This document shows, in pieces, positions 3,708-52,945 of a DNA stretch of 64,000 nucleotides. The stretch is from Octopus vulgaris (taxonomy: Eukaryota): positions 23,808,001 through 23,872,000 of the forward strand of contig OX597842.1 of the NCBI GenBank assembly GCA_951406725.2, given 5' to 3'. The translations under genes were made by a program, and so were the position numbers. The notes below the pieces were generated by a model. The model did not search any database, had not been told where the DNA came from, and saw only the letters and a program-made list of their open reading frames with translations. The stretch's first letter is position 1. Each line of letters starts with the position of its first letter.

Positions 3708-4730
3708 AGTTGAGAAGGGGTCGGCTTACAACTCTGCAATGTGCGCCGTTATTGTACTCACACAGAATGGAACGAAGTCGGCCTCGGGACAAAGTCCTGA
3801 CTTCAAATACGGCCGAGGTCGACTTTGCTTTTCATACTATTCGGGAAATACCGAGATCCATGTAACTGACTTCTCGCTTCTCTCGACAACTGTTGGTCCT
3901 GTGCCAACACTTAAAACCACCGGGACCACTCTTCGTAAATAGAAACCCCATCATCACCATTACAAGTATTAGTTTAACCTTAAAGGAAATCTCTCAGCTT
4001 ACCGTTTTTTCAATGCCTCATCAACAGAAATTAATGTGGTATTTTTCAATCGGTTTCCCTAACCCTATTTACTCTCATTTTAGAAATTAATTTCCCTTAT
4101 ATCATATATAACAGTCGATCATCGCTTTCCATAAATAACCGATCAACATTTCAATTTGGAAGTTATTAATTAAGACGAGCAATTATAATTTCCTAATGCT
4201 GTCAGGTTCCCGCTTCGAAATAATTACAGTGACAGCGAGAGGTTTACATAATTCTATTATTTATATTGCTATTCGTAGTATTATCATCACCATTACAGAG
4301 TTAAAGTGAATCTTTGTAAACTTACCGTATTCGGATATAAAATGCGAGTCCAGTGATCGCTAATTAAATGCACTAATTAATAAATTAAGGGAACTGTGTC
4401 GTAGATGTTACTTCCCTTCGTATGATTGTATTTCTTTAATTCTCCTATAGATGGCGATACTAACTTGTTGGTGTGTGTGTGTGTGTGTGTATGTATAGTG
4501 GCTGTGTTGTAAGTTCCTTGCTTAGCAACAATATCCTTCCGGGTTCAATCCCGCTCTGTGGCACCTTGGGCAAGTGTCTTCTTCGGATCTATTCTTTTTG
4601 AACGGCAGTTTTTTCTAGTGGTGTCATATGAAATTGTCACCCATAATTATGACCCTAGTATCGATCTATTGCATTTCAATCTGTTTTAGGGTCAGGGTTA
4701 GGGGTGGGGGGAAGGGTATCTTTTATTTCT
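3580..4730. repeat. segmental duplication unit (likely ZNF 5' region), paralog at ~7290-9705
   Basis: Colinear similarity (CAATGTGCGCCGTTATTGTA.., AAACTTACCGTATTCGGATATAAAATGCGAGTCC.., AGATGGCGATACTAAC); minus-strand donor-like GTAAG sites. 4220-4470 is also repeated at 4836-5090. Confidence 0.75.
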
Positions 4731-7286: not shown

Positions 7287-7450
7287 ACAAACAAATTAGG
7301 AAGAAAGACAAAAATGCGGGGAAAACTGAAATTCTGAAGTTGCGATTTTTGCCAATTTTTTTTCTTGTATCCGAATCTCCATAGCCGAAAAAAGTTGGGG
7401 AAGGGTCAGGTCACGTCTCCGCAATGTGCGCCGTTATTGTATTCACACAA

Positions 7451-7683
7451 GGCGGCAAGCTGGTAGAAACGTTAGCACGCCGGCCAAAATGCGTAGCCGT
7501 ATTTCGTCTGCCGTTACGTTCTGAGTTCAAATTCCGCCAAGGTTGACTTTGCTTTTCATCCTTTCGGGGTCGATAAATTAAGTACCAGTTACGCACTGGG
7601 GATCGATCTAATCGACTTAATCCGTTTGTCTGTCCTTGTTTGTCCCCTCTGTGTTTAGCCCCTTGTGGGTAGTAAAGAAATAA
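7451..7683 (+). mobile_element. SINE family A with ~16-bp TSD
   Basis: TSD TTATTGTA(T/C)TCACACA at 7434-7449 and 7684-7699; the paralogous site near 3749 is empty. Confidence 0.9.
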
Positions 7684-7993
7684 TTATTGTACTCACACAG
7701 AATGGAACGAAGTCAGCCTCGGGACAAAGTCCTGACTTCAAATACGGCCGAGGTCAACTTTGCTTTTCATACCATTCGGGAAATATCCAGATCCATGTAA
7801 TTGAATTCTCACTTGTTTCAACAACTGCTCGCTTTAGGTTAACATTTGAAACCATCATCATCATTACAATTATTAACATCGCTTTAAAGTAAATCTTTGT
7901 CGACTTACCGTTTTATCAATGCCTCATAAAGAACAGGACAGCATTAATTAATGTGGTATTCTTCAATCGGTTTCCTCTGAATTTATCAAATAA

Positions 7994-11779: not shown

Positions 11780-12068
11780 AAGATAGACAAAACTAACATC
11801 AATTTAATTTTTCATTCTTTATTCCCATTTCTTAATCACCTCATAATAAATTCTTCAAGAATCCAGCACAGTTATCTTCAGAAATCAAAGACATTGCCGT
11901 GTTGATATATTTCCATAGATGTATGATGTTCAGGATGATATTGATGGATTTGATGTTGACATTGACGAAACTGAAGTTGATAACATCAAATCTGAAGAGA
12001 AAAAAAAAACTGCTTTTTGCAGACAAAATAGTCACACTTGTGTGTGAATACTCACATGTATACTCAAG

Positions 12069-12482
12069 GGGCAAGCTGGCAGAATCGTTAGCACGCCGGG
12101 CAAAATGTGTGGACGTATTTCATATGCCGTTACGTTCTGGGTTCAAATTCCGCCGAGGTCGACTTTGCCTTTCATCCTTTCGGGGTCGATTAAATAAGTA
12201 CCAGTTACACACTGGGGTCGATGTAATCGACTTAATCCATTTGTCTGTGCTTGTTTGTCCTCTCTGTGTTTAGCCCTTTGTGGGTAGTAAAGAAATAGGT
12301 ATTTCGTCTGCCGTTACTTTCTGAGTTCAAATTCAGCCGAGGTTGACTTTGCCTTTCATCATTTCAGAGTCAATTAAATAAGTACCAGTTACACACTGGG
12401 GTCGATATAATCGACTTAATCCATTTGTCTGTCCTTGTTTGTCCTCTCTGAATTTAGCCCCTTGTGGGTAGTAAAGAAATAG
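12069..12482 (+). mobile_element. SINE-A dimer (full head copy plus a second unit from the internal target site) inserted in the last zinc finger
   Basis: First unit ends GAAATAG (~12299), second restarts at GTATTTCGTCTGCCG. Outer TSD GTATACTCAAG at 12058-12068 and 12483-12493. Confidence 0.85.
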
Positions 12483-15001: not shown

Positions 15002-15184
15002 TTTCTTTATTACCCACAAGGGGCTAAACATAGAGGGGACAAACAAGGACAGACAAACAGATTAAGTCGATTACATCGATCCCCAATGCATAACTGGTGC
15101 TTATTTAATCGACCCCGAAAGGATGAAAAGCAAAGTCGACCTCGGCGGAATTTGAACTCAGAACATAACGGCAGACGAAATACG
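15002..15184 (-). mobile_element. 3' part of SINE-A split by Tx1 LINE insertion
   Basis: B-box through tail of SINE-A; the matching head lies at 20524-20575. Confidence 0.85.
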
Positions 15185-15424
15185 AATTTCTTTATTGCCC
15201 ACCGGGGTCCAAACATAGATATGGACAGTACAACTGATGGGATCAGTGAATCGATATGATTTTACATAAATGTGACTTTAAAAATAAAATACAATACATA
15301 AAAAATCGAATGGAATACACAGTACAAAAACAATACAAATGAAGCGATGATCAAGTTACGCTCCGATCCCACAAGCCCTGATCTACCGCTGAAACCTTTT
15401 TATTTTCCCTTTTTTTCCGTCTAT

Positions 15425-18400
15425 TCACACGGTTCCTTGCACGCACAACACTCGTGCAACATGCTTCCGTCTCTTTTGGAACGTACACTCCGACAGACAC
15501 CTCTTCTCCAGCCACAGTTTCCTTTTCAAATGAAAAGAAAAAAAAGGATCGTAAATTGTGACCAGAGATAAAGTTGCCTGTCTTAATTCCTTTTATCCTA
15601 GTCTTCCATACTGCCTCTTTTGCTATTGCTACAACTGTGAGAAAACAATTCTTACCTTCGTTCATTAGAACTCCCGGTGGGTCAATTTTTACAATTGACA
15701 CAGTCGACAGCCGTACTCTTCCTTCGCCGGACAACAGGTGTTCAGCATAAGCCCACATTTCAGTTATCTCCGGTTACTGAACAATAGCGTGAGGGACGGT
15801 TTACCTGCCCCCCCCCCCGCATCTTGGACAGGTCGGCAACTGACGTTTACCATGTCTTGCAAGCTAATCCCAAATGGGCAAGGCACCTCTGTGGCATTGC
15901 CAGGTTAAGGACTTTTGGAAGTTGTCCAACGTTCTCAACCCGAATGTACGATGAAACAAGCTGTCCAGTTGAATAAATCTGAGACCTAGAGTCGACCCCA
16001 GGCCATCGTCGCATTCAGACTCTACCAACCCACTATATAAAATCCGTGTGGAACCCCCACCACTGGCGTTGCCCGAGCGCCGGAACAGCAAGAGGGCCTT
16101 ACGGCACTCTTTATGCTACTCACTCGACCTCAGTCTACGAGAACACCAGGCTTCCTGTTCGCAAAAACTCTTGAACTCAGGGAACATTTGTCTGGCTAGC
16201 AGAGACCACGCCCGTTCACTATCCAGGAGAATCCAGAGGTGCCTCAACCTCAACGCATGTCTGCGCATCATTAACCAAGGCATCCCTAAACCTCCCTTTA
16301 AAGGCTTTTGACAGCTGACAGAGCGTTTCACAAGTGGCGACCTGCCCTTCCACAAAAAGCGAAAGAGCTGTCTCTCCAACCTGATCAACCACGAATCTGG
16401 ACAGGGCACGACGGTCAGGTGGTAGGTAATGACCGATGCGATAAACACATTGGCCACCTCCGCCCTCCCCTTCAGGGATAGCCACCGCCAAGACCAGGTC
16501 TTGACTACTGCAGCCACCCTGCTCAATACCTCCGTCCAGTTCTGGAGGCCTGGTCCAAACCAGACTCCCAGCAATTTAACCGGTCCCTCCGTCCAGCGCC
16601 CAACAACGCTGTCTGAAGGCATCGACTTGCCAAACCAGGTGCCGAGCTGCAAGCCGACCGACTTTTCCCGGTTAATCTTTGCTCCTGCTACCTCCTCGTA
16701 AGCCTCAATAGTCTTACCTACTTCACGTAGGCGTGCTACTGTGGTTACACTAATAGTGATATCATCCGCGAAAGCCGTAATAAACTCCTCTAGTCCTGGT
16801 TCTCTCGGGATGCCACTCAACCTTCGCAGTAATGGCTCGAGAGCCATCACATACAAAAGTGGTGAAAGCGGACATCCTTGACGAACCGAGCGTTTGATGT
16901 AGAACGGCTTCGAAAGGAAACCGTTCACCCGAACTATCGAGTCAATGTTGTGGTACAAAGCGATAAACCACCTGAGGAAGCCAAGACCCAGGCCAAACCG
17001 CGCAAGTACAGTCGCTAGGTATCGATGGTCAACCCTATCAAAAGCTTTAGACTGGTCCATGCACCAATGCCCCACCTTTGCCAGATTTATTACCAACCCT
17101 CGCTATGGTATAGCGAATAAGATGGAGGGTATCCTGAATGGTTCTGCCTGGGATGGCACATGTCTGTGCCTCCCCGACTATACCATTTGCGAAACGCGCC
17201 AACCTTTTTGCTAGAACCTTGGCCAAAATCTTCACTTCTGCGTTTAACAGAGTGATGCGCCTGAAATTTTCTAGAACGTCCCCCTTGTCCGGTCCTTTCT
17301 GACCAACGTCACTACTCCCTGGCGCACAGATCTGGGGATAGACCCATTCTGTTTCCAGTTCACGTACACGTCAGTCAGTAGTTGCCCGAACAAGTCTGGC
17401 ATACATTTATACAGCTCGTACGGAAGACCATCAAGCCCTGGTGACTTACCCGCTTTATAATCAGCCAAAGCCTCCATCACCTCCTCAGGTGTGATTGGCC
17501 CTTCGCAAGACTCCGCATCCGACCCCGAGAGGCACGGCAGCCCGGCAAGAATGTCCTCGAGGGCTCTCCCACCACCAGGACAGCCGTCACCCCCGAACAT
17601 CTGGGCGAAGTACTCCCGAAAGACCTCACACATTTTCTCGGGTTCGTTTACCAAGACACCATTTTGATTCGTCAAAGACCGAATAGAGGAACTATTTCCT
17701 TGCCGAGCTCCCACCACTCGGGCCCATCCAGCGGCCTTGATTCCTTCACTTCCCATTGCACGTAACTTAGCTCTGGCAATACTTCCCATGTGGTGGGCTT
17801 CAAGATGCTGGTTTAACTCCAGTCTTTTCACCCTTGCTTGGTCTGCATTACCAGTCCTCCAGGCTTCTTCTAGTTCCTTAACTAGACCATCTCCTATTTT
17901 ATGTCCCTTCTTAGCTAAACTTATGCTAAACCTAATAGACTCATATTTGATGGCTCTTTTTAGGGCGTACCACCATTTGTTATTAATGATGGTACCTGTA
18001 AATGCCCTCTGTATTAACATCTTGATCCGCTTTCTGTACTCCTCAATCGCCAAAAGGGACGTATTGAGTTTCCAGTAGCCAGATCCCTGTCTATGCAACT
18101 TATCTACCGTCAGTTTACAGGTAACCATCTTGTGGTCACTGTAGCTGACTAGAAAAAACTGTGGACACTCAACTATGGACTTATCTTTTTCTCTAATTAA
18201 AATCCTATCTAGATATGTTCTGGTAGACCCATCACTATTTGACCACGTCCACTGTGAAGTGTTCGGGTGCTCCAACCTATATGGATCTGCTAGCTGAAAT
18301 TGACTTAGCAGATCACGAAAGCCTGGGTTACACTTTCTGTTCATGTTCGAGCTCGAGCCAACACAATCTGTGTGTGCTGCACATATTGTATTAGAGTCTC

Positions 18401-18805
18401 CTAACACTACTAGTGAATGCGACGTGGCTAGGAACTTTCCCAGGTCACAAAAATATTCAGTTTGCGGGCCAATAATGTTTGGTGTGTAAATAGCGACCAG
18501 CCTGATTGTCTTGCCACAACTGAATGTCAAGTCGAGAACGACCAGCCTGCCTTCTGGGTCTACCAACTTTTTCTCGGCTACCGGTTTCTTTTTAGTAGGA
18601 CCAACACCCCACCTCCTGCCCGACTCGGAGAAACGTATTTCTCGTAGCCGTTCAGGAGGGGCAGCAGACCTCTTGGCCCCTTCACCCGGGTTTCCGTTGC
18701 AACAATTACATCCAAATTTTTCGACCTGATATCATTTAGAAAGCGTCCTTGCTTCCAGCTTGACAACAGGCCACGAACATTTATACAACCAATGTGAATA
18801 GACAT
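15425..18805 (-). pseudogene. Tx1 ORF2 (AP endonuclease + reverse transcriptase), multiple frameshifts
   Basis: [72 protein letters not shown] spread over ORFs starting at 18805, 18566, 17235, 17096, 16091 and 15758. 3' end approximate. Confidence 0.88.
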
Positions 18806-18819
18806 AACTTACCTGTTTA

Positions 18820-20345
18820 ATCAGGATTGTCCGGTGGAGAGGAACCCTCCACCTTTTTTTGATCCAGGGTCGGAGGTGGACGGTCTTGGGAAATAGATTT
18901 GTCAAATCCCGTCTCACCACCGACACAGAATTATCAGGTGGAGGGGGAATCTCCACCTTTTCCTTTTCTCGCGGGATCGGGGCTGGTAATCCATGAAATA
19001 TCGACTTGTTAAAATCTAATCTCAATGAAGATACTGTCTTTCTGTATCTGTTTTGTAAAATTCTATGAGTCTTATTTGAGACTTCATATATGTCGTAATT
19101 GATAAATTCCTCTGAAAGGTTATCTATTTTTGTTACAGTCTTTATCAGTTGAATGTCTCTCATGAGCTCAGTATTTTTAGTATATACGGCTATTATGCCT
19201 TTTTCTTCTTTTTCTCTTCTGGCAGTCTTTTTTGGTCATTGTTCTGTAGTAGTCGCCGCTCTCGGCTGAGTTGCTGGTTGTATTTTCTTTTTGTTTGTTG
19301 TTTTTTCTCATCTGTTTCTTCTTTTTCTTCTTCCTCTTTGTCTTTTTTCTCCTCTTCCTCCTCTTCTGCATTTTCCTTGCAGCTCCTTCGAATGTGGCCT
19401 AATTGACCACATAAAAAACATCGAGGTTTTCGGCCCTCAACAAACACCACGAGGTTCTCCTCCCCTACCTCAATTTTCTCGGGAATTGCTTGAATTATTT
19501 TAGGGTCCGCTTGAATGAGAAGATTAATTGTTTGACCATCCCAGTGTGGGTTTTCCGTAGCGGTAGCCTGGAGGAAAGTAATTTTTTCTTCCTCTTTGAT
19601 TAGGACTGCCGCCAACAACCACATAGGATCCACTTCCGGGGGGACCCTTGTAATTTTTTATTCTGGACGTTCTCATCCCCATATAATAGGGGATGAGCTC
19701 CACGTCGTTCGTTTTCAGCGTTTCTACTGAGTTCTTGTGTGCTATTTCTTTATTGGTGAACCTTACTTCCACCGTTCCGAATTTCTTGCCTCTTCTCAGA
19801 TAAACTACGTCGCCCCATATTGGCTTTAAGCACTTTTCTATTTTCTCTTCTGACATTCTTTCAATTTTTCTTTTTTGTAGACAATATGTTTTGAAAATTA
19901 TTGTTTTTTGCTTTTCTTCTTGTAATAACTTTTGCGGAGGTTCAATTTTCACAACGTTGCCAGTTATTTTCATCATTTGGCTGTATTTCATAAAGTCGCT
20001 TTTATTCGTTGACAGCAGCCGGGTTCCACCCCCAGCAGCCAACGCAAAACTTTTTTTCCCATTTTTTGGTTCTGTCTGGATGCTAGGTACATCAATTATT
20101 CTTTTTGACACAATGCCTTTGTTCTCTGGCAAAGTCGGAAACTCTTCTGGTGAAAGTTCTGACGAGCTTTCAGACACATCTCCAAAAAAATCAAATATAT
20201 TATCTATTCTGCTATTCTTTCTTGTAGCGGGGGAAACCCTTATTTCCCTGTCTGTAGTTGGCTCCTCGCCGGACATGTATTTCCTCCTCTCAACAGGAGA
20301 AACAAGTATTTCTGCTCCAACGGTAGACTCCATGCTAGACGACAT
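18820..20345 (-). pseudogene. Tx1 ORF1 (gag-like, CCHC zinc knuckle), frameshifted
   Basis: ORFs 19524-20372 and 19193-19633 with RCFLCGQLGHIRRSC (CX2CX4HX4C) and an E/K-rich tract; located upstream of ORF2. Confidence 0.75.
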
Positions 20346-20523
20346 TCTTCCCCCCAAAGGGGGAATGAACAACGCGTGCTACTACAAGCACTAAGTGTTT
20401 TCAAATGAGAACTCCAACAGTTAAGTTATTCAACAGTTTAACAAGAAACAACAGTTATTAGAAACAGCAGTTATTAACAATATTAACACCAAGAAGCAAC
20501 AATTTTTACCACGAACATATGTG

Positions 20524-20575
20524 CGGCAGACGAAATACGCCCGACGTGCTATAACATTTCTGCCAGCTCGCCGCC
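20524..20575 (-). mobile_element. 5' head of the split SINE-A
   Basis: Minus strand GGCGGCGAGCTGGCAGAAATGTTATAGCACGTCGGGCGTATTTCGTCTGCCG. Confidence 0.85.
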
Positions 20576-25425: not shown

Positions 25426-28400
25426 GGATGCACCTTCTTGCATCCTAAACTGTGCTAAACTTCTGTGTCACTAAGGATGTGCCTGAACCCAGAATGCAAC
25501 CACCACCATCTGAAGGGCACAAAACGATCGCAAAATAAATATAAACAGCAACAGAGGAGATCTACGACAACAACAAAGACAAAATACAACCACGTTTCCC
25601 CTCCTACAATCAAACAACGAAGACAGAACCATGAAAAAAACCATAACACCAAATAACACCAACATGAAATATGTATCCTCTGACCAAGTGACAAACCAAA
25701 GAGGTAACTCTTTTTTACTGACTTACGTAGAAAATATGAAGGCCGATCTAAGCCAGGAGATCCAACGAGCTATCAGCAACCACCTATGCAAATCACAAGG
25801 ACCACACACCCACTACCAACAAGAAAATCATACACACACAGCTCCATACAAGAACTACCCACATTGTTACCACTGAACAACATAAAACATAACTTAGAAC
25901 AATGCAAACATCAAACTTCCCTTACCTCAACATTCCTGTTAAATGTACGTGGCATCAACCCATCAATTATTGCCCAAAAATGGAAGATCCCATATATAGA
26001 GAGTTGGCTTGCCGAAACGGCACATTGCTTCCCTTTCTTTATCCTTACCGAGACTCACCTGAACAACACCCATATGGACGCCTAGGTGAAAATAAAAGAT
26101 TTCACCATTGTTCGTGCGGATCGCACAGACTGAAATAAGGGAGGGACAACCATCTTTATCCATGACTCCTTTTCACTTGATGCCAAAGACATATTTTCCA
26201 ATGGCTATTGTGAATCGGTATTACTATTCAGCAAGGCCAAGGACATAATCATTGTTGGTCTTTACAGGCCTCCCCAAGCACCTCTAAAGAGCTTTGAAGA
26301 GTGCCTCAGCAAAGTCAAATCCTTCCTTCGGAAGTACAACTCCGGAAACATAGTAGTGATAGGTGATTTTAACCTCCCTCATGTGAACTGGCCCACAAAT
26401 ACTCTGAAGTTAGGCAAATGCTCTACATCAGATAGAGCAGCAGCAGAACTGCTCTTTAATCTAATGGATGAATACTTCCTGACTCAGCTACTGCTCAAAC
26501 AAACGAGACAGAATAAAACGATCTTGGATCTGGTATTGACCAATCACTCTAGCTTCGTTCACAGTATTTCAGTTGAAAAAACTCTCCTCTCAGACAACGA
26601 CATGATACTCTGCAATTTTAATTCCCGACATATAAAAACCAAACCAGCCAATCCCACTCCATGGCACTCATTTGACAACATAAACTTCCACAAAGCGGAC
26701 TGGGGAGCAATCAGAAAGGATCTGTCTTTCATCGACTGGTCTTTTACTCTCAATTCCACCCATATTGAGACCGCATGGCAGCACTTTGAAAACATTGTCA
26801 CTTACAAATGCTCTAAACACGCTCCCACGAAATCTACTAACACAAACAGAAACCGGCTCCCTAAAAAGAAAAAAACACTCATCAGGCGCATCAAAAGACT
26901 CAACAAAAAAATCAACCAATTAAAATATTCCCACACACAACATCCACATTCAACAACAATGAAAAGGCTAGAGCTGGAAAAACTTCATCTGCAGACCGAC
27001 ATGAAAACCTCCATTGAAAATCAAAGAGCTGTGGAGGAACAGTGGGTAATCAAAAACATCAAACAGAACCCAAAAGTGTTCTATTCTTATGCAAATAAGC
27101 ATAAAACCACTGTCTCACCCATTGGGCCATTGACTGATGATAACGGCATTCCTCAACACGATGCTAAAGAAATGGCAGAAATACTGCAGAAACAATACTG
27201 CTCTGTCTTTAGTGTCCCCACTGACATTGACGTAAGAGAAGCGAACGAAGTTGACTCCCAATATAAAATCTCAGACATAACCTTCATTGCCACTGACATC
27301 ATAGCAGCAATAAATGAGGTCAAATACTATTCTGCTGTAGGCCCTGATAGATTCCCCGCTAGTCTCCTGAAGGAATGTAGACACCAACTTGCAGTCCCTC
27401 TGACCAACCTCTGGAGAAATTCGTTAGACGCAGGTTATATACCGAAACAGTTTCTATCCCAGTCAGTCATCCCGGTTTTCAAACAGGGAAACAGATCCCT
27501 CGCACTCAACTATCGCCCAATCTCACTCACCTCCCACATCATTAAAGTGTTTGAAAGAGTGTTAAGATCAAGGATAGCTGACTTCCTGGAGACCCACAAA
27601 CTCCTAAATGCAAATCAGCATGGCTTTCGCTGTGGCAGGGACTGTCTAACACAGCTCTTAAACCACATTGAAGATGTACTCAAAGCCTTGCGAACATGTT
27701 CGAATTCTGATGTCATATATCTTGACTTCAGTAAAGCATTTGACAGGGTAGACCATAATATCCTACTCTCAAAATTGGGAAACGTTGGAATCCGAGGAAA
27801 AGTTCTACACTGGATTATGTATTTCCTGGCGAATAGAACATAACATGTTGTAGTTGATGGAGTCCACTTAAGCCCAGCAAAAGTCACCAGCGGTGTCCCC
27901 CAGGGGACTGTCTTGGTTCCGCTACTCTTCATAATTTATATAAACGACCTTTCCAGTGTCGTACATTACTGCAAAGTGAAAATATTTGCTGATGACACTA
28001 AGCTCCAGCAAATCGTCAATGAAGAAGCAGACTGAACTCAACTCCAGTCTGATCTATATGCTGTGAGTCAATGGGCAGACAGAAACAAAATGCAACTGAA
28101 TGAGGGAAAATTTGAGCTGATGCATTTTGGAAGAAATTCCTCACTAAAACAGCCATACTCTCTTCCTTCAGGGGAACCGCTCACAGCCTCTAACAATATC
28201 AGAGACCTGGGTGCAATTGTTGATGACGATCTCAGTTGGAGTGCACACATCAACAAGAAGGTCGATATAGCTCGTAGGATGAGTTCCTGGATCTTAAGAA
28301 CTTTCCGGTCCAGAGAACAAGGTGTCGTCATACCACTTTTCTCCTCCTTTGTACGGCCACACCTCGAATACTGCTGCCCACTGTGGTCTCCCCATACAAG

Positions 28401-28971: not shown

Positions 28972-29848
28972 ATCATCATCATCGTTTAACGTCCGCTTTC
29001 CATGCTAGCATGGGTTGGACGGTTCAACTGGGGTCTGGGAAGCCCGAAGGCTGCACCAGGCCAGTCTGATCTGGCAGTGTTTCTACAGCTGGATGCCCTT
29101 CCTAACGCCAACCACTCCATGAGTGTAGTGGGTGCTTTTTATGTGCCACCGACACAGGTGCCAGACGAGGCTGGCGAACGGCCACGCTCGGATGGTGTTT
29201 TTTATGTGCCACCGACACAGGTGCCAGACGAGGCTGGCGAACGGCTACGCTCGGATGGTGTTTTTTATGTGCCACCGGAACGGAGGCCAGGCGAGGCTGG
29301 CACGGCCACGATGGGATGGTGTTTGTTACGTGCCCACAGCACGGAGGCCAGTTGATGCGGTACTGGCTATGGCCACATTCGGATGGTTTCCTTATGTGTC
29401 ACCAGCACTGGTACAACAAAGATACAAATTCCATTGATGTTCATCGATTTTGATTTGATTTTCACTTGCCTCAACAGGTCTTCACAAGTGTCCCAAGAAG
29501 GAGGGTATGCACAGGTGGATGACTACGTCCCAGGTAGGGGCCATGGATTATGGCCTCACGTGTCCTGCCGGGTCTTCTCGCGCACAGCATACTTCCAAAG
29601 GTCTCGGTCTCTGGTCATTTCCTCAGTGAGACCTAAAGCGCGAAGGTCGTTCTTCACCACCTCGTCCCAGGTTTTCCTGGGTCTACCTCTTCCACAGGTT
29701 CCCTCAACCGCTAGGGTGTGGCAGTTTTTCAAACAACTATCTTCATCCATTCTTACTACGTGTCCATACCAGCGTAGACGCCTCTCTTGCACACCACATC
29801 TGATAATTCTTAGGTCCAACTTTTCTCTCAAGGCACTTACACTCTGTT

Positions 29849-29849
<1 letters not shown>
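28972..29849 (-). mobile_element. 5'-truncated RTE LINE
   Basis: [19 protein letters not shown] (ORF 29556-29999) plus 3' UTR and (GAT)n tail; same family as 22197. Confidence 0.85.
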
Positions 29850-30601
<752 letters not shown>

Positions 30602-30705
30602 ATATTATATTAGAGACAAAACCACTATTATGCAAATCAAACAAAGAAAGACTTAAGCCAATACATAAAATAATTTATATAAAGTAAAATTTAACAATTA
30701 TAAAT

Positions 30706-30759
30706 AACCACTACGATCGTTTCGTGTCAGCACATCTTTGAGACATTCTTCAGGTGGTT
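30706..30759 (-). ncRNA. type-I hammerhead ribozyme motif, intact core
   Basis: Reverse complement of 30925-30978. Confidence 0.8.
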
Positions 30760-30924
30760 TCAAAACCTAAAATATAAGATATAAATAATGTAAATAAAAA
30801 TTTACTTATAATAAACTCTATTATTAAATATGATTATATCGAAATCGGTTATAATGTTAATAATAGAGTTTATTATAAGTAAATTTTTATTTAGATTATT
30901 TATATCTTATATTTTAGGTTTTGA

Positions 30925-30978
30925 AACCACCTGAAGAATGTCTCAAAGATGTGCTGACACGAAACGATCGTAGTGGTT
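30925..30978 (+). ncRNA. type-I hammerhead ribozyme motif, intact core
   Basis: AACCAC-CTGAAGA-aTGTC(..)GACAc-GAAA-CGATCG-TA-GTGGTT: 6-bp stem I, palindromic stem III ACGATCGT, GUA cleavage triplet. Confidence 0.8.
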
Positions 30979-31168
30979 ATTTATAATTGTTAAATTTTAC
31001 TTTATATAAATTATTTTATGTATTGGCTTAAGTCTTTCTTTGTTTGATTTGCATAATAGTGGTTTTATCTCTAATATAATATAATATAATATTTTACTAT
31101 AAAATTGGATTCAATCCTAAATCTGATTTGTCTGTGTAAATTTGGATTTATTCCCTAATATTTATTAT

Positions 31169-31169
<1 letters not shown>

Positions 31170-31261
<92 letters not shown>

Positions 31262-31634
31262 TACATATATATATACATACATATATATATATATACATAC
31301 ATATATATACACATACATATATATATACATATATATACATACATACATATATATACATACATATAATATATATACATATATATATACACACATACATATA
31401 TATATACATATATATATACATATATATACATACATACATATATATACATACATATAATATATATACATATATATATACATACTTATATATATATATACAC
31501 ATATATATACATATATATATACATGTATATACATATATATATATACACATATATATATATACATATATATACACATATATATATACATATATATATATAC
31601 ATACATATATACACACATATATATATATATACAC

Positions 31635-31665
<31 letters not shown>

Positions 31666-31860
31666 CACACATATATATATATATATACATATATATATAC
31701 ATACATATATATATACTTACATATATATACATACATATATATAAATATATACATATATATATACATACATATATATATACTTACATATACATACATACAT
31801 ATATATAAATATATATGTACATACATATATATATATATATACATACATATATATATATAC

Positions 31861-31900
<40 letters not shown>

Positions 31901-32106
31901 ACATATATATACATACATATATACATACATATATATATACATACATATATATATACATATATATACATACATATATATATACATATATATATATACATAT
32001 ATATATATACATATACATATATATATATACATATATATACATATACATATATATACATATACATATATATACATATATATACATATATATATACATATAT
32101 ATATAC

Positions 32107-32161
<55 letters not shown>

Positions 32162-32180
32162 TATATACATACATATATAT
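31170..32180. repeat. (TA)n/(TACA) microsatellite
   Basis: ~1 kb TA-rich tract. Confidence 0.95.
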
Positions 32181-33645
32181 ATGACCTCACACATCAGCAA
32201 GGTCATGGAACGAATAGTCAGAAGGAAGCTGATCACCTTCCTTGAAGAGAATGACTTGCTGCCCGACACCCAACATGGTTTCCGACCAGGGAGAAGCTGT
32301 TTAACTCAGCTCCTACAACACTATGACTGGGTGCTGAAACGGCTGCTCAACCACTCAAATGTGGAAGTGATATATCTCGACTTTGCGAAGGCCTTTGATA
32401 AAGTCGATCATGGAATGATATGTCACAAACTGCGTGATCTCAACATAGTTGGAAAACTGGGAGAATAGCTTCATGACTTTCTGAAGGATAGAAGTCAGGT
32501 GGTAGTAGCCAATGGGGCCACCTCCATTAACACACAAATAGTGAGCGGTGTTCCGCAGGGCACTGTTCTGGGACCACTACTGTTCATAATGGCCCTCTCA
32601 GACATGCCCTCAACCACGCAGAGAGCCACGATCACAAGTTATGCAGATGATACAAAAGTGTCACAGGCAATACAGAACCCTGAGGACACTAAACACCTGC
32701 AATGTGAGCTGGACGAAATATACAAGTGGGCTGAAAAGAATAGCATGCAGTTCAATGCTGGAAAGTTTCAAGCTTTATACTATCAGCATGCAAAACTGAA
32801 TGCAATACCCAATGAATACACTGGACCCGGAGGGATTGCAATCCCAGAGGCACAATCAGTGCGTGACCTGGGTATTCACATGAGTGATGACGCGACCTTT
32901 CATGTACATGTTGCTAAACTGACAATGAAATGTAGACGGCTGGCTGGATGGATTCTTAGAACCTTTAGAACAAGAGAACAAGAAACCATGATGGTCCTCT
33001 GGAAGACACTTGTCCTAAGCCACTTTGACTATTGCTCTCAGCTATGGTCACCATCCAGTGTCAAGTTGATCACAGAACTTGAGGCGATCCAACGAAGCTA
33101 CACAAAGAAGATAGCCTCTATGCAGAATGTAAGCTACTGGGAAAGACTCAAGAGATTAAAATTATATTCCCTGGAGCGTAGGCGGGAAAGATATGCCATA
33201 ATATACATCTGGAAGATCCTGGAGGGAAGTGTCCTGAACTTTGGCATCGAGAGTTACGCAAATGCCAGAACTGGGCGCCACTGCGTGGTGCCTAGGACTC
33301 CAAACCTGCCATCAAGATGTAGGACAAGATTCTGTGATAGCCTGGGCTTCCGAGGCCCACAGCTCTTCAATATCCTCCCGAAGAACCTGAGAGACCTGCA
33401 TGGGGTGGATACAGATGTCTTTAAAATGAAGCTGGATCTCTTCCTGTCAGGTGTCCCAGATGAACCAACTTCACGGCAGGAGGGGCAGAAGAGGGCAGCT
33501 GCATCGAACTCTCTCATGCACCAAATAGCAGTTGCTAGAAAGCCTCCATGAAGTGAAACCAAGTAGCAACACCAAATGGCGGTGCCCCAGCATGGCCACA
33601 GCTCATAAGCTGAAACTAGAATCAATCAATCAATCAATCAATCAA
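32181..33645 (+). mobile_element. 5'-truncated CR1-group LINE (second family), RT with one in-frame stop
   Basis: [26 protein letters not shown] at 32466, [24 protein letters not shown]; (TCAA)n tail. Confidence 0.88.
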
Positions 33646-35000
<1,355 letters not shown>

Positions 35001-38000
35001 CTTAGAATAACTTAGAAAGGTTTTTGACCAGTATTGGCCCAGGCCATGTCTAACTTAATAGCACCACCTGGCGAAGTCTTTCAGTTCAGGATTTGGGCAC
35101 CAAGGCCCATTCGAGCAGAGAGTTATTGTTTGCGGAGACATATCCGGGTGTGGATGGTTTGTCCGGTACTGTTTGAAGGAATTTGTCCAAAGACTTCTTG
35201 AATTTTGTGTGGTCAGTTTCTTTTTTGACGTGTCCTGGTGTAATGTTGAAGAGAGCGGGTCCAATTGAGGTGAAATAGTTGTGCCGTATTGTCGTTATGT
35301 GATGCGATTTAGATTTTTGTTGTGGACGGATGGCACGTGGTCCAAGCCTTGGATGCATTTTGAAGGTGATGCCAACATCATTCGGACAGTGCTGATGGAA
35401 TATTTTCCACATCATACAGATAATGTAGCGTTCACGGCGTCGTTGGAGTGAATACAATTTCAGCTTCTCTAGTCTACCCCAGTAGTCAAGGTCTGACATG
35501 CCATCTATCTTTTTTGTGATTGACCTTTGGGGAGCTTCAATTCTCATAATATTTTGTTTTGTGTAGGGAGACCACAGTGGACAGCAGTATTCAAGGTGGG
35601 GTCGGGCAAAAGTGGAGAAGAGAAGGATAATAGCGTGGGAATCTCTCGACTGGAAGGTTCTGAGAATCCAGGAACACATTCTGCGGGCCATGTCAACTTT
35701 GCTGCTTATATGTGTAGCCCAGCTTATGTTGTTGTCCACTGTTACTCCCAGGTCTCTGATGTTGTCGGATGCCATGAGAATTTCTCCAGAAGGAAGAGAG
35801 TATGGGAGTTTCAGAGCGTCCTCCCTTCCAAAGTGGATCAGTTCGAATTTGTCTTCATTTAGCAACATGTTATTCTTTTCCGCCCATTGGACAACAGCTA
35901 GTAGGTCTGACTGAAGGTTTATTCGGTCATCCACGCCATTGATGACCTTCTGGAGCTTGGAATCATCAGCGAAGGTTCTGATGTTGCTGTGTTTGATGGT
36001 GTCAGTAATATCATTTATGTAGATGATGAAGAGAAGTGGGCCCAACACAGTGCCTTGTGGGACACCACTGCTGACTTTGGCTGGGCTGGATTTGACTCCT
36101 TCGACTACAACATGTTGGGTTCTGTTAGAGAGGAAGCACTTGATCCATTGCAGCAGCTTTCCAGTGACACCAATATTGGACAGCTTTCTCAGAAGGATCT
36201 TATGATCAACCCTGTCAAAGGCCTTGCTGAAATCAAGGTAGATGACATCAGTGTTGGAACCCTCTCCCAAGGCTCTCAAAATGTCATCAAAATGATGCAG
36301 TAGCTGCGTCAGGCAATCTCTCCCATTACGGAATCCATGCTGGTTGGGGTTCAGCATATTATGACTCTCAAGGAAGTGAGTCATACGCGATCTCAGCACC
36401 CTCTCAAATACCTTGATGATATGAGAGGTGAGTGAGATTGGACGGTAATTCACGGCAAGCGATTTGTTTCCTTTTTTGAAAACTGGGACAACAGACTGGG
36501 ATAGAAGGTCTTCTGGTATATATCCAGCATCCAATGAGTTCCGCCACAGATTGGCTAGAGGGGGTGCAAGTTGGTTTTGACACATCTTCAAGACACAAGC
36601 AGGGAACCCATCGGGACCTACTGCTGAATTATGCTTCATTTCCTTTATTGCTGCTAAGACATCAGGAGCGCCAAATGTTATGTCCGATAAAGTGTATTGG
36701 GGAGTAACATCACTGATACAGCCCAGATCAGTCATATCAGGATTGCTGAAAACAGAGCAATATTGTTTCTGCAATATTTCTCCCATGGTTTTGGCATTGT
36801 CTTGAAGAATACCATTTTCATCAATCAGAGGGCCAACAGTAGAACCAGTGACTCTGTGTTTTTTTGCAAATGAAAAGAACACTTTGGGATTGAGTTTGAT
36901 CTTCTCAATGGCCCAGGCCTCTTCAGCTCTTCGCTGACTATTGATGATAGACATCATGTTGTTTTGGAGTTTATGTTTTTTAATCTCTAGCGACGAGATG
37001 GCAGTCAGGTTGGTGTGTTGCTGTTGACAGTATTTCAGCATGTTGATCTTTTTGTTGATTCTTTTAATTTTCCTTATGAGAGATTTTCTATTTCTAGGGA
37101 TTCGACACTTAGATTTGTTTGCAGATCTTAATGGGGTGTGTCTTGCACATATGTTCGTGATGGTGTCTACAAGTGACTGCCAGGACTTTTTGATGTTAGT
37201 GGGTGTGTATGTGTGCGTGAAGGACCAATCGACTTGTGCAAGATCATTATTGATCGCTTCCCAGTTTGCATTGTGGAAATCCATAGTGTCAAATGGATGA
37301 ACAGGAGGGATGACATTTGTTTTGCATTTTGGCCAGTGAAATCTCAGATCACAGAGAACCATGTCATGGTCGGAGAGTAGGGTTTTCTCCACTGCAATAT
37401 TGTGGATAGTATCAGTGTGATTGCTGAAAATTAAGTCTAAGACGTTTTTGTGACATCTCGTTGGTTCGAGTACCAGTTGGGACAAGAAGAAGTCATCCAT
37501 GAAGTCAAGAAGCGATTCCACTGCCTCCCTGTCAGGGGTTGAGAGAGAAGAACCTGGCAGCAGACTGTTTATAGACCAGTCAACCCCGGGAAGGTTGAAA
37601 TCTCCCATCATTAAAATGTTGTCAGGTTGACACTGCTGAATGAAACACTTTATGCTGTTGAGGCATTCCTTGAAGCATGGTAGGGGCGTTTGGGGTGGTC
37701 TGTAGAGCCCAACTACTGTTAAGTTGTTGGTTTGACTGAATACAGCGACTGCTTCGCAGTATCCATTCGAAAATATGTTCATGGCTTCTGTTGAGAATGA
37801 ATCATGGACATAAATGGCAGTCCCACCCTTTCTTCTGCCAACACGATCAGCACGAATGGTTTTGAAATTTTTAACTTTCACCTCGGCTTCCAAGTGGAGG
37901 TCACTAAGATGGGTTTCAGTGAGGACGAAGAAAGGGATGTGGTTTGGATGGGCCTCGACCCAGTCCTCCAGGAATCTTATCTTCCATTTTTGTGTATTGG

Positions 38001-43439: not shown

Positions 43440-43752
43440 AATTTTCCTTTTTCTCGTCACAGTACACAAAGGTTTTCCTTCTTCTCGTATATTGCTCTTA
43501 CCAAATATTTTTACTGATATATCTCCATCAAAAGTGTTCTTTGTTAATATCTGAAGATGCTGCAAACTGCCTTCTTAATTACCTTAACTCATTAACATTC
43601 AAATTACTGTCAAATGTAATGATTATTTATTCAAATTCTACTCAATTAATCATTCATTATCTTATTGCTTTAAGATTTCAACGATGTGATTCTTTATGTT
43701 TATAAGACATTGCATGGTGAGTGTAAGAGGCCAGATGTGGGCAGTTTTAAGA

Positions 43753-45468
43753 TAAAATAGCTTGAACATGTGGCACTGATATGGCCAGATGAAATGGTGA
43801 AGGATTAATTCAAATACAAATATAATTTTCTGTGTATTCCAGACAATAAAGAAGACAAATTTTGCTACATATATGTCAGAGTTCAGAAGATATATTTTGC
43901 AGTAATTCAGTATATATTTATAGAAACACGGTTATACGTGTTATGAGTAAGACGTTCAATACTAATGATGTAGTTTATATAAAAATCCTGTGATGCTGAG
44001 GTCATTTGATAATCTGAAATGAAAGAGAAACAACAGTGTAAAACATAGAAGATAATTTGGAATTAGAGAGATTAAAACAGTGAAAGTTTTACTACATTTT
44101 CATACAGACATGTCCATAGAGATGCAGGGATGGTTGAGTGGTAAGAATTTTGATTCCCAACTCACAAATCTAATAAGCACACCCATTTTCTTCCTTCATT
44201 TCACTCCTTTCTTGAATTCCCATGATTCCCTGTCACCATCCAATTCCATTAACGTGAATGTGAATTTGAATGCCTGAGACATTGTGAATCTTTCTTTAGC
44301 TGATTACACAACCATGGATACGTTGCAGTTACTCTCTTCATAGAGCCTGGTGATCCTGACCCCTGAACTACAAGGTTCCCTCTGCCCAGCATCAATATAA
44401 GAAGCATTGTTGGTTCAGCTGAGTTCTTCTGCTGCTTCTTCACAAACTGCCATGCTGCAGTCCCAAAGTTCGTCACAGAGTACCCCAGGTTAAAAAATGG
44501 TTAGAAATCACAACCATTCATTTATATTTTATTTGAAAAAAGGGAAAGTGGACCTTGGCGGAATTTGAACTCGGAAACTAATAATAATAATGGTAAATTA
44601 ATTATGTGCAATACTTAATTAACAAATGCTCCACCACCCATACAATGTGACGTGTGTCAGTTATGTGTGGGTAGGAACCCAGCAAATGTATTTCATCATA
44701 TTAAATTCCAATATAATCGTAATATACACAGTCTGGGTACTACTAGCGAACAGTGGTCCCGGTGCGCGCACTCGCGCGAGCTAGTCGTAAGTAGTCGATC
44801 CTACAATTTTTTAAACTAACTAAATAAATTATTTTTATAAACAAACTAAGGTTAGGTTTAGGGTTAAAAAGTCGTTGTAGGATCGACTACTTACGACTAG
44901 CTAGCGCGAGTGCGCGCACCGGGACCACTGTTTGCTAGTAGTACCCACAGTCTGAACAGTATTTGTAGAAAATTTCATGAAAGTAACTTAATTTTCCTCG
45001 TTTCATCAGGTTTAGAATATTATTTACGATGGGTAAAATCTAAACAAATTTTGAATTTCCAAAGATATGCGACAATAAAAGGTTTTGTACAAAGAGAAAA
45101 CGAACTTAAATCTAAAAAATAAGACGAAATTATTACTTTACTCACGATTAAATCTAAATCGTTATCTTCGAAGGAGTCTTTTTTCCTGCAGTTTTGATAC
45201 AAAAGCAGAAATTCATCGAGAAAAGGGATCAAAGAACTTCTCAGACACAAGAAGCGATCCTGAGAAAAAAATACCGTTAAAAATGGGGTGTGTATAAAAC
45301 ATGAATTAGTTTGTTTAGAATACCGAAACGAAATTGTAGTATTGTATCAAACTTAATGGCAATTTTCTTTTTGTTCTGAGCTGAAATTCGGCCGATGTTA
45401 ATTTTATCTTTCATAGCTTCGGAATCAATAAAATAAAGATTCAGACAAAAACAGAAGTCGATGGTAGT
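43753..45468. repeat. left arm of ~1.7-kb inverted duplication (ZNF 5' region)
   Basis: Reverse complement of 51256-52945, including the MITE and an identical 75-aa spurious ORF. Confidence 0.9.
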
Positions 45469-51255: not shown

Positions 51256-52945
51256 AACTATCATCGACTTACGTTTTTGACAGAATTTTTATTTTTATTT
51301 ATTCCGAAGATATGAAAGGTAAAATTAACATCGGCCGAATTTAAGCTAAAAAACAAAATAGAAAAAAAATAATGTTTGGCCTAAATAATTGCCGTTAAGT
51401 TTCGTACAATATTAATATTTCGTTTCGGTATTCAAAACAAACCAATTCATGTTTTATACTTACCCCATATTTAAAGGTATTTTTTTCTCAGGATCGTTTC
51501 TGGTGTCTGAGAAGTTCTTTGATCCCTTTCCTGAAATTAGCGACTTTTCTGGATGAATTTCTGCTTTTGTATCAAAACTGCAGCGAAAAGGACTCCTTCG
51601 AAGATAACGATTTAAATTTAATCGTGAGTAAAGTAATAATTCCGTCTTATTTTTTATATTTAAGTTCGTTTTCTCTTTGTACAAAACCTTTTATTGTCGC
51701 AAATCTTTGGAAATTCAAAATTTGTTTAGATTTTACCCATCGTAAATAATATTCTAAACCTGATGAAACGAGGGAAATTAAGTTACTTTCATGAAATATT
51801 CTACAAATGCTGTTCAGACTGTGGGTACTACTAGCGAACTTGCGCTAGCTAGTCGTAAGTAGTCGATCCTACAACGACCTTTTAAAAATAATTTATTTAC
51901 TTGGTTTAAATTATTGTAGGATCGACTACTTACGACTAGCTCGCGCGAGTGCGCGCACCGGGACCACTGTTCGCTAGTAGTACCCAGACTATGTATATTA
52001 CGATTATATTGGAATTTAATATGATGAAATACATTTGCTGGGTTCCTACCCACACATAACTGACACACGTCACATTGTATGGGTGGTGGAGCATTTGTTA
52101 ATTAATAATATTATTATTAGTTTCCGAGTTCAAATTCCGCCAAGGTCCACTTTATATTTTCGAAATAAAATTTAAATGAACGGTTGTGATTTCTAACCAT
52201 TTTTTCGCCTGGGGTACTCTGTGACGAACTTTGGGACTGCAGCATGGCAGTTTGTGAAGAAGCAGCAGAAGAACTCAGCTGAACCAACAATGCTTCTTAT
52301 ATTGATGCTGGGCAGAGGGAACCCTGTAGTTCAGGGGTCAGGATCACCAGGCTCTATGAAGAGAGTAACTGCAACGTATCCATGGTTGTGTAATCAGCTA
52401 AAGAAAGATTCACAATGTCTCAGGCATTCAAATTCACATTCACGTTAATGGAATTGGATGGTGACAGGGAATCATGGGAATTCAAGAAAGGAGTGAAATG
52501 AAGGAAGAAAATGGGTGTGCTTATTAGATTTGTGTGTTGGGAATCAAAATTCTTACCACACAACCATCCCTGCACCTCTATGGACATGTCTATATAAAAA
52601 TGTAGTAAAACTTTCACTGTTTTAATCTCTCTAATTCCTAATTATCTTGTATGTTTTACACTGTTGTTTCTCTTTCGTTTCAGATTATCAAATGACCTCA
52701 GCATCACAGGATTTTAATATAAGCTACATCATTAGTATTGAACGTCTTACTCATAACACGTATAACCCTGTTTCTATAAATATATACTGAATTACTGCAA
52801 AATATATCTTCTGAACTCTGACATATATGTAGCAAAATTTGTCTTCTTTATTGTCTGGAATACACAGAAAATTATATTTGTATTTGAATTAATCCTTTAA
52901 CATTTGAACTGGGCATACCATTCCCAAATATTCTGCATATTTTAT
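51256..52945 (+). repeat. right arm of inverted duplication: 5' region of a plus-strand ZNF copy truncated by the gap
   Basis: Acceptor CTCTTTCGTTTCAG|ATTATC at 52683 and the start of the large ZNF exon 5' UTR run into the N gap. Confidence 0.8.

Follow-up and report, generated by a model that had tools for sequence, protein, structure and literature searches.

A Tx1-like LINE lineage of Octopus vulgaris inserts at one position within a SINE head and is the probable partner of SINE-A

The 64,000-nucleotide stretch of Octopus vulgaris DNA analysed here (GenBank assembly GCA_951406725.2, contig OX597842.1, positions 23,808,001 to 23,872,000; referred to as the window) contains a full-length long interspersed element (LINE) of the L1/Tx1 type that splits a copy of a short interspersed element (SINE), termed SINE-A. 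This locus raises the question of whether a LINE can target a fixed position within the very SINE that it mobilises, as had been proposed in an earlier note made from the window alone. The 2.8-Gb genome was searched with an exact 18-nt probe that ends 29 nt before the LINE end and is therefore unbiased with respect to the junction. All 53 matches were inspected, and 52 of them run on at the same SINE position, which bears out the proposed site specificity; the contrary outcome named beforehand had been junctions at random SINE positions or no more frequent in SINE-A than its abundance predicts. Since only about 49,000 exact intact target sites (48,962) are present in the genome, chance is excluded as the source of these junctions. 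The SINE sequence reaches the B-box in 48 of the 52 on-target copies and is deleted or interrupted beyond the junction in the other four, and two of the 53 copies (on C3) derive from one local tandem duplication and are treated as a single event. The single off-target copy carries its own, site-like 11-nt duplication CGTAATGTATC, which fixes the LINE end at AAAGAAATT. The LINE thus targets one position within the SINE head. According to Kojima's rule, a family is counted as target-specific when more than 20% of its flanks are of one type (PMC4494074; here and below, cited papers are represented by the sections covered), and the corresponding shares are 52/53 junctions and 10/14 truncated copies.

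The anatomy of the locus agrees with the description in the earlier note of a minus-strand LINE between two copies of a 16-bp duplication; both open reading frames (ORFs) of this LINE copy are broken. The following features were assigned in the window:

20524..20575, minus strand: SINE head (5' part) with an A-box-like motif at 20555-20565 and about 11 nt deleted
20524..20539, minus strand: 5' copy of the 16-nt duplication CGTATTTCGTCTGCCG, the last three letters of which are partly LINE-borne in other copies
15185..20523, minus strand: L1/Tx1-type LINE, full-length but with broken ORFs, belonging to the younger of the SINE-targeting subfamilies
18732..20345, minus strand: ORF1, frameshifted across three frames, with a CCHC zinc knuckle
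15425..18805, minus strand: ORF2 (apurinic endonuclease-like (APE) endonuclease, reverse transcriptase, zf-RVT), interrupted in this copy by frameshifts and stops
15185..15227, minus strand: LINE 3' tail resembling the SINE tail, terminus ...AAAGAAATT, without poly(A)
15169..15184, minus strand: 3' copy of the 16-nt duplication, representing the insertion site
15002..15184, minus strand: SINE-A body (B-box-like motif at 15147-15159) and Tx1-like tail
12068..12479, plus strand: SINE-A dimer composed of head, unit, TAG and a second unit that begins at the same site, at 12299
7451..7680, plus strand: uninterrupted SINE-A whose target site (7498-7513) is unoccupied and which is bordered by a 16-nt duplication with a single mismatch

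The two 16-mers are separated by 5.3 kb of LINE sequence, and a third occurrence of CGTATTTCGTCTGCCG in the window is the empty site inside the uninterrupted SINE. The box-like motifs, named by what we take to be the A- and B-box consensus, were found where the earlier note had placed them, on opposite sides of the LINE (A-box-like TGGCAGAAATG at 20555-20565, B-box-like GAGTTCAAATTCC at 15147-15159), and are separated by the insertion. Neither Rfam nor ARAGORN yielded a tRNA match for the SINE head, and no small nuclear RNA (snRNA) match was obtained from Rfam. The nucleotides missing from the head lie immediately before the duplication, and the outer SINE duplication around this copy is weak (6 nt). 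The SINE-A dimer is bordered by a 10-nt duplication GTATACTCAA, and seven more SINE bodies or long parts of them in the window align to the interrupted SINE-A at 85-93%. Additionally, related sequence with a B-box-like SINE fragment occurs in two copies (3745-3845 and 7681-7780), of which the copy at about 7440-7700 took a SINE-A insertion and that at about 3760 represents the empty site.

The upstream flanks were analysed in a set of 60 LINE elements that were assembled from 3' and 5' searches, with 40 of 67 5' candidates scored. A SINE head precedes the LINE in 46/46 copies with a 5' end and in ten of the 14 5'-truncated copies, the latter with ten distinct truncation points. This occurrence of the head upstream of full-length and truncated copies alike argues for targeted insertion and against a composite element. 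An outer duplication of at least 8 nt surrounds the head, the LINE and the SINE tail in 26 of the 49 copies with a scored head, including six with a truncated LINE, a count that may be inflated by AT-rich flanks; together with the heads before truncated LINEs, these duplications indicate that the SINE was present first and that the LINE inserted into it. The SINE type downstream of the younger LINE varies (47 SINE-A, three SINE-B1, seven unclear), and the SINE is therefore not part of the LINE. The junction letter of the younger subfamily is C, and AGCC heads occur in 7/8 informative truncated copies, compared with roughly 30 in a listing of 100 heads by visual count (p=0.0013). At position 14 of the duplication, the 5' copy has T where the 3' copy has C in 19/43 cases, whereas the reverse was found in 4/43 (p=0.003); such a T without counterpart in the 3' copy indicates that the LINE 5' end bears target-like letters. 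Three further observations were made on these copies: a local duplication comprises at least three 6.45-kb units in tandem, each of which contains head, LINE, SINE and 1 kb of flank (G000:C3:153111000-153126000; L097-L098); a short element with ends like TATATA..CG..CACTAC is inserted within LINE copies and just past one junction (L008/L175, L009/L182, L034); and one LINE is followed by an 83-nt tandem repeat that extends over SINE head and B-box (L101, G000:C10:62583535 onward).

Regarding the classification of the LINE, open ORF2 frames of 1134 amino acids are present in other natural copies. In such a copy, PF03372, PF00078 and PF13966 (APE, reverse transcriptase and C-terminal zinc-binding region) scored above their cut-offs, as did PF00098 for the CCHC knuckle of ORF1. 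The closest solved-structure match of ORF2 is L1 ORF2p (1.9e-64), with R2 at 1.6e-20. These domains, together with target-site duplications and variable 5' truncation of the copies, place the element among the APE-type non-LTR retrotransposons of the L1 group. Typical traits of the Tx1 clade are an ORF1 with a CCHC knuckle and the lack of a poly(A) tail, and both are present in this LINE. Homologue, atlas and cluster look-ups with the LINE protein returned no named Tx1 protein; the element likely belongs to Tx1 proper.

Diverged copies of the same lineage, identified by protein search, lie at the SINE site in 13 of the 14 cases with a 3' end and elsewhere in one. An older subfamily was sampled by a search with the 3' untranslated region of one diverged copy (227 candidates, 40 taken, 30 loci scored, four of them overlapping with the protein-search set). 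All 30 junctions are GGTATT-like; 28 were scored as SINE, one had its SINE deleted and one runs into N. The downstream SINE differs from that of the younger subfamily (17 SINE-B1, 10 SINE-A, three unclear; p=1e-7), and the junction letter is G in 25-27 of the 30 copies, so that it tracks the head subtype. Head plus SINE units precede three older full-length copies. In a reverse transcriptase tree of 42 natural copies, all from this genome, the copies that target the SINE group into a single clade (SH-aLRT 100, quick search), the sister clades of which insert into other repeats, between GAACAC and ATGGAGG or between TTGTA and GAAATTCGG. A younger, abundant sister family (L210-L223, e.g. G000:C12:75761200-75771100), with 81% protein identity and many open frames of 1132 amino acids, lands in a repeat between ...GAACAC and ATGGAGGAAAGC and is frequently arranged in tandem, either with copies of its own or with other tails of related type. 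Another (L206-L208) uses a site between ...TTGTA and GAAATTCGGC in a repeat whose start is Helitron-like by eye, and also forms tandem copies. Moreover, one off-target older copy carries an inverted duplicate of its own 3' end and flank (L193, G000:C19:71458100-71464700), and an older LINE is preceded by four tandem units of 78 nt that consist of the terminal portion of SINE-A and are linked at a third site (L202, G000:C2:47097100-47103800).

The same position is entered by SINE-A itself. Among 92,831 exact SINE-A tails in the genome, 38,626 (about 40%) continue with NNNGTATT, i.e. the same site, and a longer exact junction of SINE tail and site occurs 29,407 times, which is a minimum count. 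The first 100 SINE-A tails on C1 enter a SINE body at the site in 46 cases, a second head site in two and flanking DNA in 52. The next unit after the 46 on-site tails is SINE-A in 27 cases, the different SINE family B in 12 and unclear in seven. The resulting arrays have the layout head + (184 nt)n, and a SINE unit that inserts at the site restores the spacing of the A- and B-boxes. A clear duplication was recognised for 22 of the 52 flank-joined tails, the other 30 being without a found head or a clear duplication; in these 22 solitary insertions, the pre-existing DNA at the beginning of the duplication conforms loosely to (G/T)(G/A)TAT (T in 17, A in 15 and T in 13), and 16 is the commonest duplication length. 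SINE-B1, which has the same head and body and another tail, showed 0/85 tails at the site, about 12 of these 85 having been picked for the second site. This second head junction, between GGCAG and AA(A/T)CG, is used by SINE-A tails (2/100) and by SINE-B1 tails (106 exact junctions; L338-L349; L114, L135, L190, L200) and may reflect microhomology or a sister endonuclease. The target-bearing head is common to SINE-A and to SINEs with other tails. The earlier suggestion of a target inside the LINE's own SINE therefore holds insofar as the site lies in the SINE-A head, whereas the site is not private to that SINE.

As to which LINE moves SINE-A, the earlier note had relied on the resemblance of the 3' ends. 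This resemblance is real: the tails quoted there are present, 33/43 positions are identical, and the last 42 nt of the two elements give an alignment score of 21, compared with at most 3 elsewhere in the LINE. The tail is common to the whole LINE group, however, and its likeness alone cannot name the partner. Pairwise divergence amounts to 9.8% among older LINE copies, 9.4% among SINE-A units and 1.6% among younger LINE copies; the younger subfamily postdates the SINE burst, and the age of the older subfamily fits it. The insertion signature is common to SINE-A and the LINE, and it is the older subfamily alone that overlaps with SINE-A in age. The proposed partnership is thus supported by the shared target, the shared duplication length and the age of the older subfamily, whereas the tail argument does not suffice, since sister families with other targets match the SINE tail at 36-37/43 positions versus 33/43 for the window copy. 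Site preference and age point to this lineage as the partner, with the window copy as a later descendant of the likely partner. We therefore favour the reading that an L1/Tx1-type lineage inserts at one site, immediately before C or G and GTATTTCG, between promoter-like boxes, and that SINE-A was probably moved by the same machinery, with a probability of roughly 0.8 judged from sequence comparisons.

Several observations weigh against this reading. Unrelated DNA lies upstream of three of the 14 truncated younger copies (the remaining one being the off-target copy), and 16 of the 30 older loci have an apparent 5' end without head or outer duplication, two of them as clear internal deletions. 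The 5' T is not confined to one clean clade on the star-like tree of younger copies (nine changes). Out of 43 tail positions, the younger LINE matches the SINE at 31-33, the older at 35-38 and the sister families at 35-37, and when LINEs ending in exactly the SINE tail were sought, only variants of the SINE were retrieved, with no ORF2 near the 30 of 34 matches inspected. Neighbouring array units are closer to each other than units of separate arrays (median 6.6% versus 9.9%), and 20/45 adjacent pairs fall below the 5th percentile of between-array distances, so that about half of the array junctions look locally duplicated and the junction counts overstate independent insertions. These near-copies indicate local growth, or movement in multimeric form, for a portion of the arrays, and the window dimer with its own 10-nt duplication is an example of such movement. 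Finally, about half of the SINE insertions are at unique sites, and the SINE is therefore far less specific than the LINE.

Some of these points would fit a LINE that is specific for the SINE head while a sister family whose tail is similar moved SINE-A, the arrays then being DNA-level duplications after rare founders. The equally good sister tails and the similar adjacent units are in line with it, as is the resemblance of the second head junction to a sister family's target. Sister families nevertheless use other sites and end differently, solitary SINEs begin at (G/T)(G/A)TAT with duplications of about 16 nt, SINE-A units precede bodies of other SINE families and no such junctions are made by SINE-B1, which makes this explanation unlikely. 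The headless older loci, the outer duplications around the whole unit and the one LINE-borne letter in the 5' duplication could instead reflect a composite of head, LINE and SINE body that hitchhikes without any targeting. It is very improbable and already largely refuted, given that the head is retained before ten differently truncated LINEs, that several SINE families follow downstream, that the off-target copy stops at the LINE terminus with a duplication of its own and that the headless older loci are without an outer duplication. Hardly credible, finally, is a host RNA gene such as a tRNA, or a short degenerate motif, as the real target with the SINE as a mere high-copy carrier. The head is tRNA-like by the presumed boxes, solitary SINEs show just a short motif, and the R1Bm endonuclease recognises such a motif (PMC1919474). 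Against this, 52/53 copies lie in SINEs and none in a tRNA gene (the host tRNA set itself was not searched), a motif of 5 nt occurs far more often outside SINEs than within them, truncated copies favour one head subtype and sister families go for other repeats.

If SINE-A is mobilised by the LINE machinery, it likely inserts at the position of the LINE as well, and since about 40% of its tails run into the same site, the SINE likely keeps creating landing sites for the LINE. By analogy with established target-primed reverse transcription, the APE domain would nick a short motif (approximately NGTAT) and the reverse transcriptase would prime on the RNA tail, a second nick leading to the duplication of 13-16 nt. 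Target-like letters at the RNA ends might pair with the site and sharpen the site choice. A short motif is all that the R1Bm endonuclease recognises by itself (PMC1919474), and targeting is reported to become stronger when target RNA is co-transcribed (PMC4494074); the target-like letters at the 5' end, along with a junction letter that tracks the head subtype, point to such help by RNA. SINE cDNA that meets its own sequence at the target may join by homology, which would account for arrays with one head and n bodies. Historically, the lineage may initially have used heads belonging to older SINEs that had different tails; SINE-A would have been born when such a head and body acquired the LINE tail, would have spread alongside the older subfamily and would then have supplied most sites for the younger one, the arrays later likely being lengthened through local duplication and movement of multimers.

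Taken further, these considerations tentatively suggest a closed loop, to which we assign somewhat less than an even chance. The only regular target of the LINE would lie in the promoter region of a SINE that it mobilises, and this SINE would act, through its captured LINE tail, both as cargo and as a landing-pad factory. The SINE would absorb insertions in the form of head + (184 nt)n arrays, which number in the tens of thousands, and the LINE specificity would have followed the SINE from GGTATT heads (older subfamily) to the CGTATT heads typical of SINE-A (younger subfamily), aided by target-like letters at both RNA ends. Target-specific LINEs normally rely on a target that is maintained by the host or by another element. 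In the present case the LINE itself probably multiplies its target through its activity, which would provide a testable case of LINE-SINE feedback, in which a parasite becomes a supplier of safe harbours. With at least 29,407 exact junctions across the genome, the arrays would also show how tandem arrays can arise from SINEs by retrotransposition, and the closely related families, which have about 80% protein identity and differ in their targets, constitute a natural series for mapping the determinants of APE specificity.

The remainder of the window contains distant LINE reverse transcriptase remnants at 26932-27951, 32199-32663 and 35578-37083, with 22-26% identity to this ORF2, and within them 27257-27947 and 36011-36701 form an inverted pair. 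A 789-nt inverted repeat (43752-44540 and 52157-52945, 96% complementary, 7.6 kb apart) adjoins a B-box-like SINE fragment at each arm, and extended AT-rich microsatellite tracts occupy 29700-35000, with a GC content of 12% at 30001-32000.

Tx1-type LINEs that target other mobile elements, as well as a SINE that shares such a target, are already known (PMC4494074), and the octopus repeat papers, in the sections covered, list L1-Tx1 families or an RTE element without a target (PMC13282606, PMC9115989). No report of a LINE with a specific target inside its partner SINE was found in the literature searched, a scope outside which Repbase, Dfam, most subscription journals and supplements fall. The closest system is Tx1-Mar/SINEU of crocodilians (Kojima 2015, PMC4494074), in which Tx1 LINEs and a SINE likewise share one target and overlap in age, with a 16-nt duplication (SINEU-3), tandem SINE insertions and truncated copies as the argument against hitchhiking. 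Its target, however, is a third element, Mariner-N4_AMi, and its SINE head derives from snRNA (U1/U2) (PMC4494074), whereas the octopus target lies within the SINE's own head, which has no snRNA match, and the arrays consist of one head and n bodies. Tx1L, which inserts into Tx1D, and Keno, Kibi and Koshi are also APE-type LINEs with ORF1 and ORF2 and sequence-specific insertion into a repeat, but none of their targets, which comprise a DNA transposon, U2 snRNA genes and microsatellites, is amplified by the LINE (PMC4494074, PMC1919474). The Alu-into-Alu hotspot (Levy et al., PMC2836564) resembles the present case as a SINE with a single-nucleotide hotspot for its own further copies. In the octopus, the autonomous partner is found at the site in 52/53 copies, in addition to about 40% of the SINE tails. 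L1, to our knowledge, is not confined to Alu. Tandem SINE arrays and SINE-derived satellites of bivalves and squamates are head-to-tail SINE multimers like those described here, but were ascribed to recombination, comprise about 3% of the SINEs in the richest bivalve and, in the sections covered, are linked to no site-specific LINE (PMC11481361, PMC10702118).

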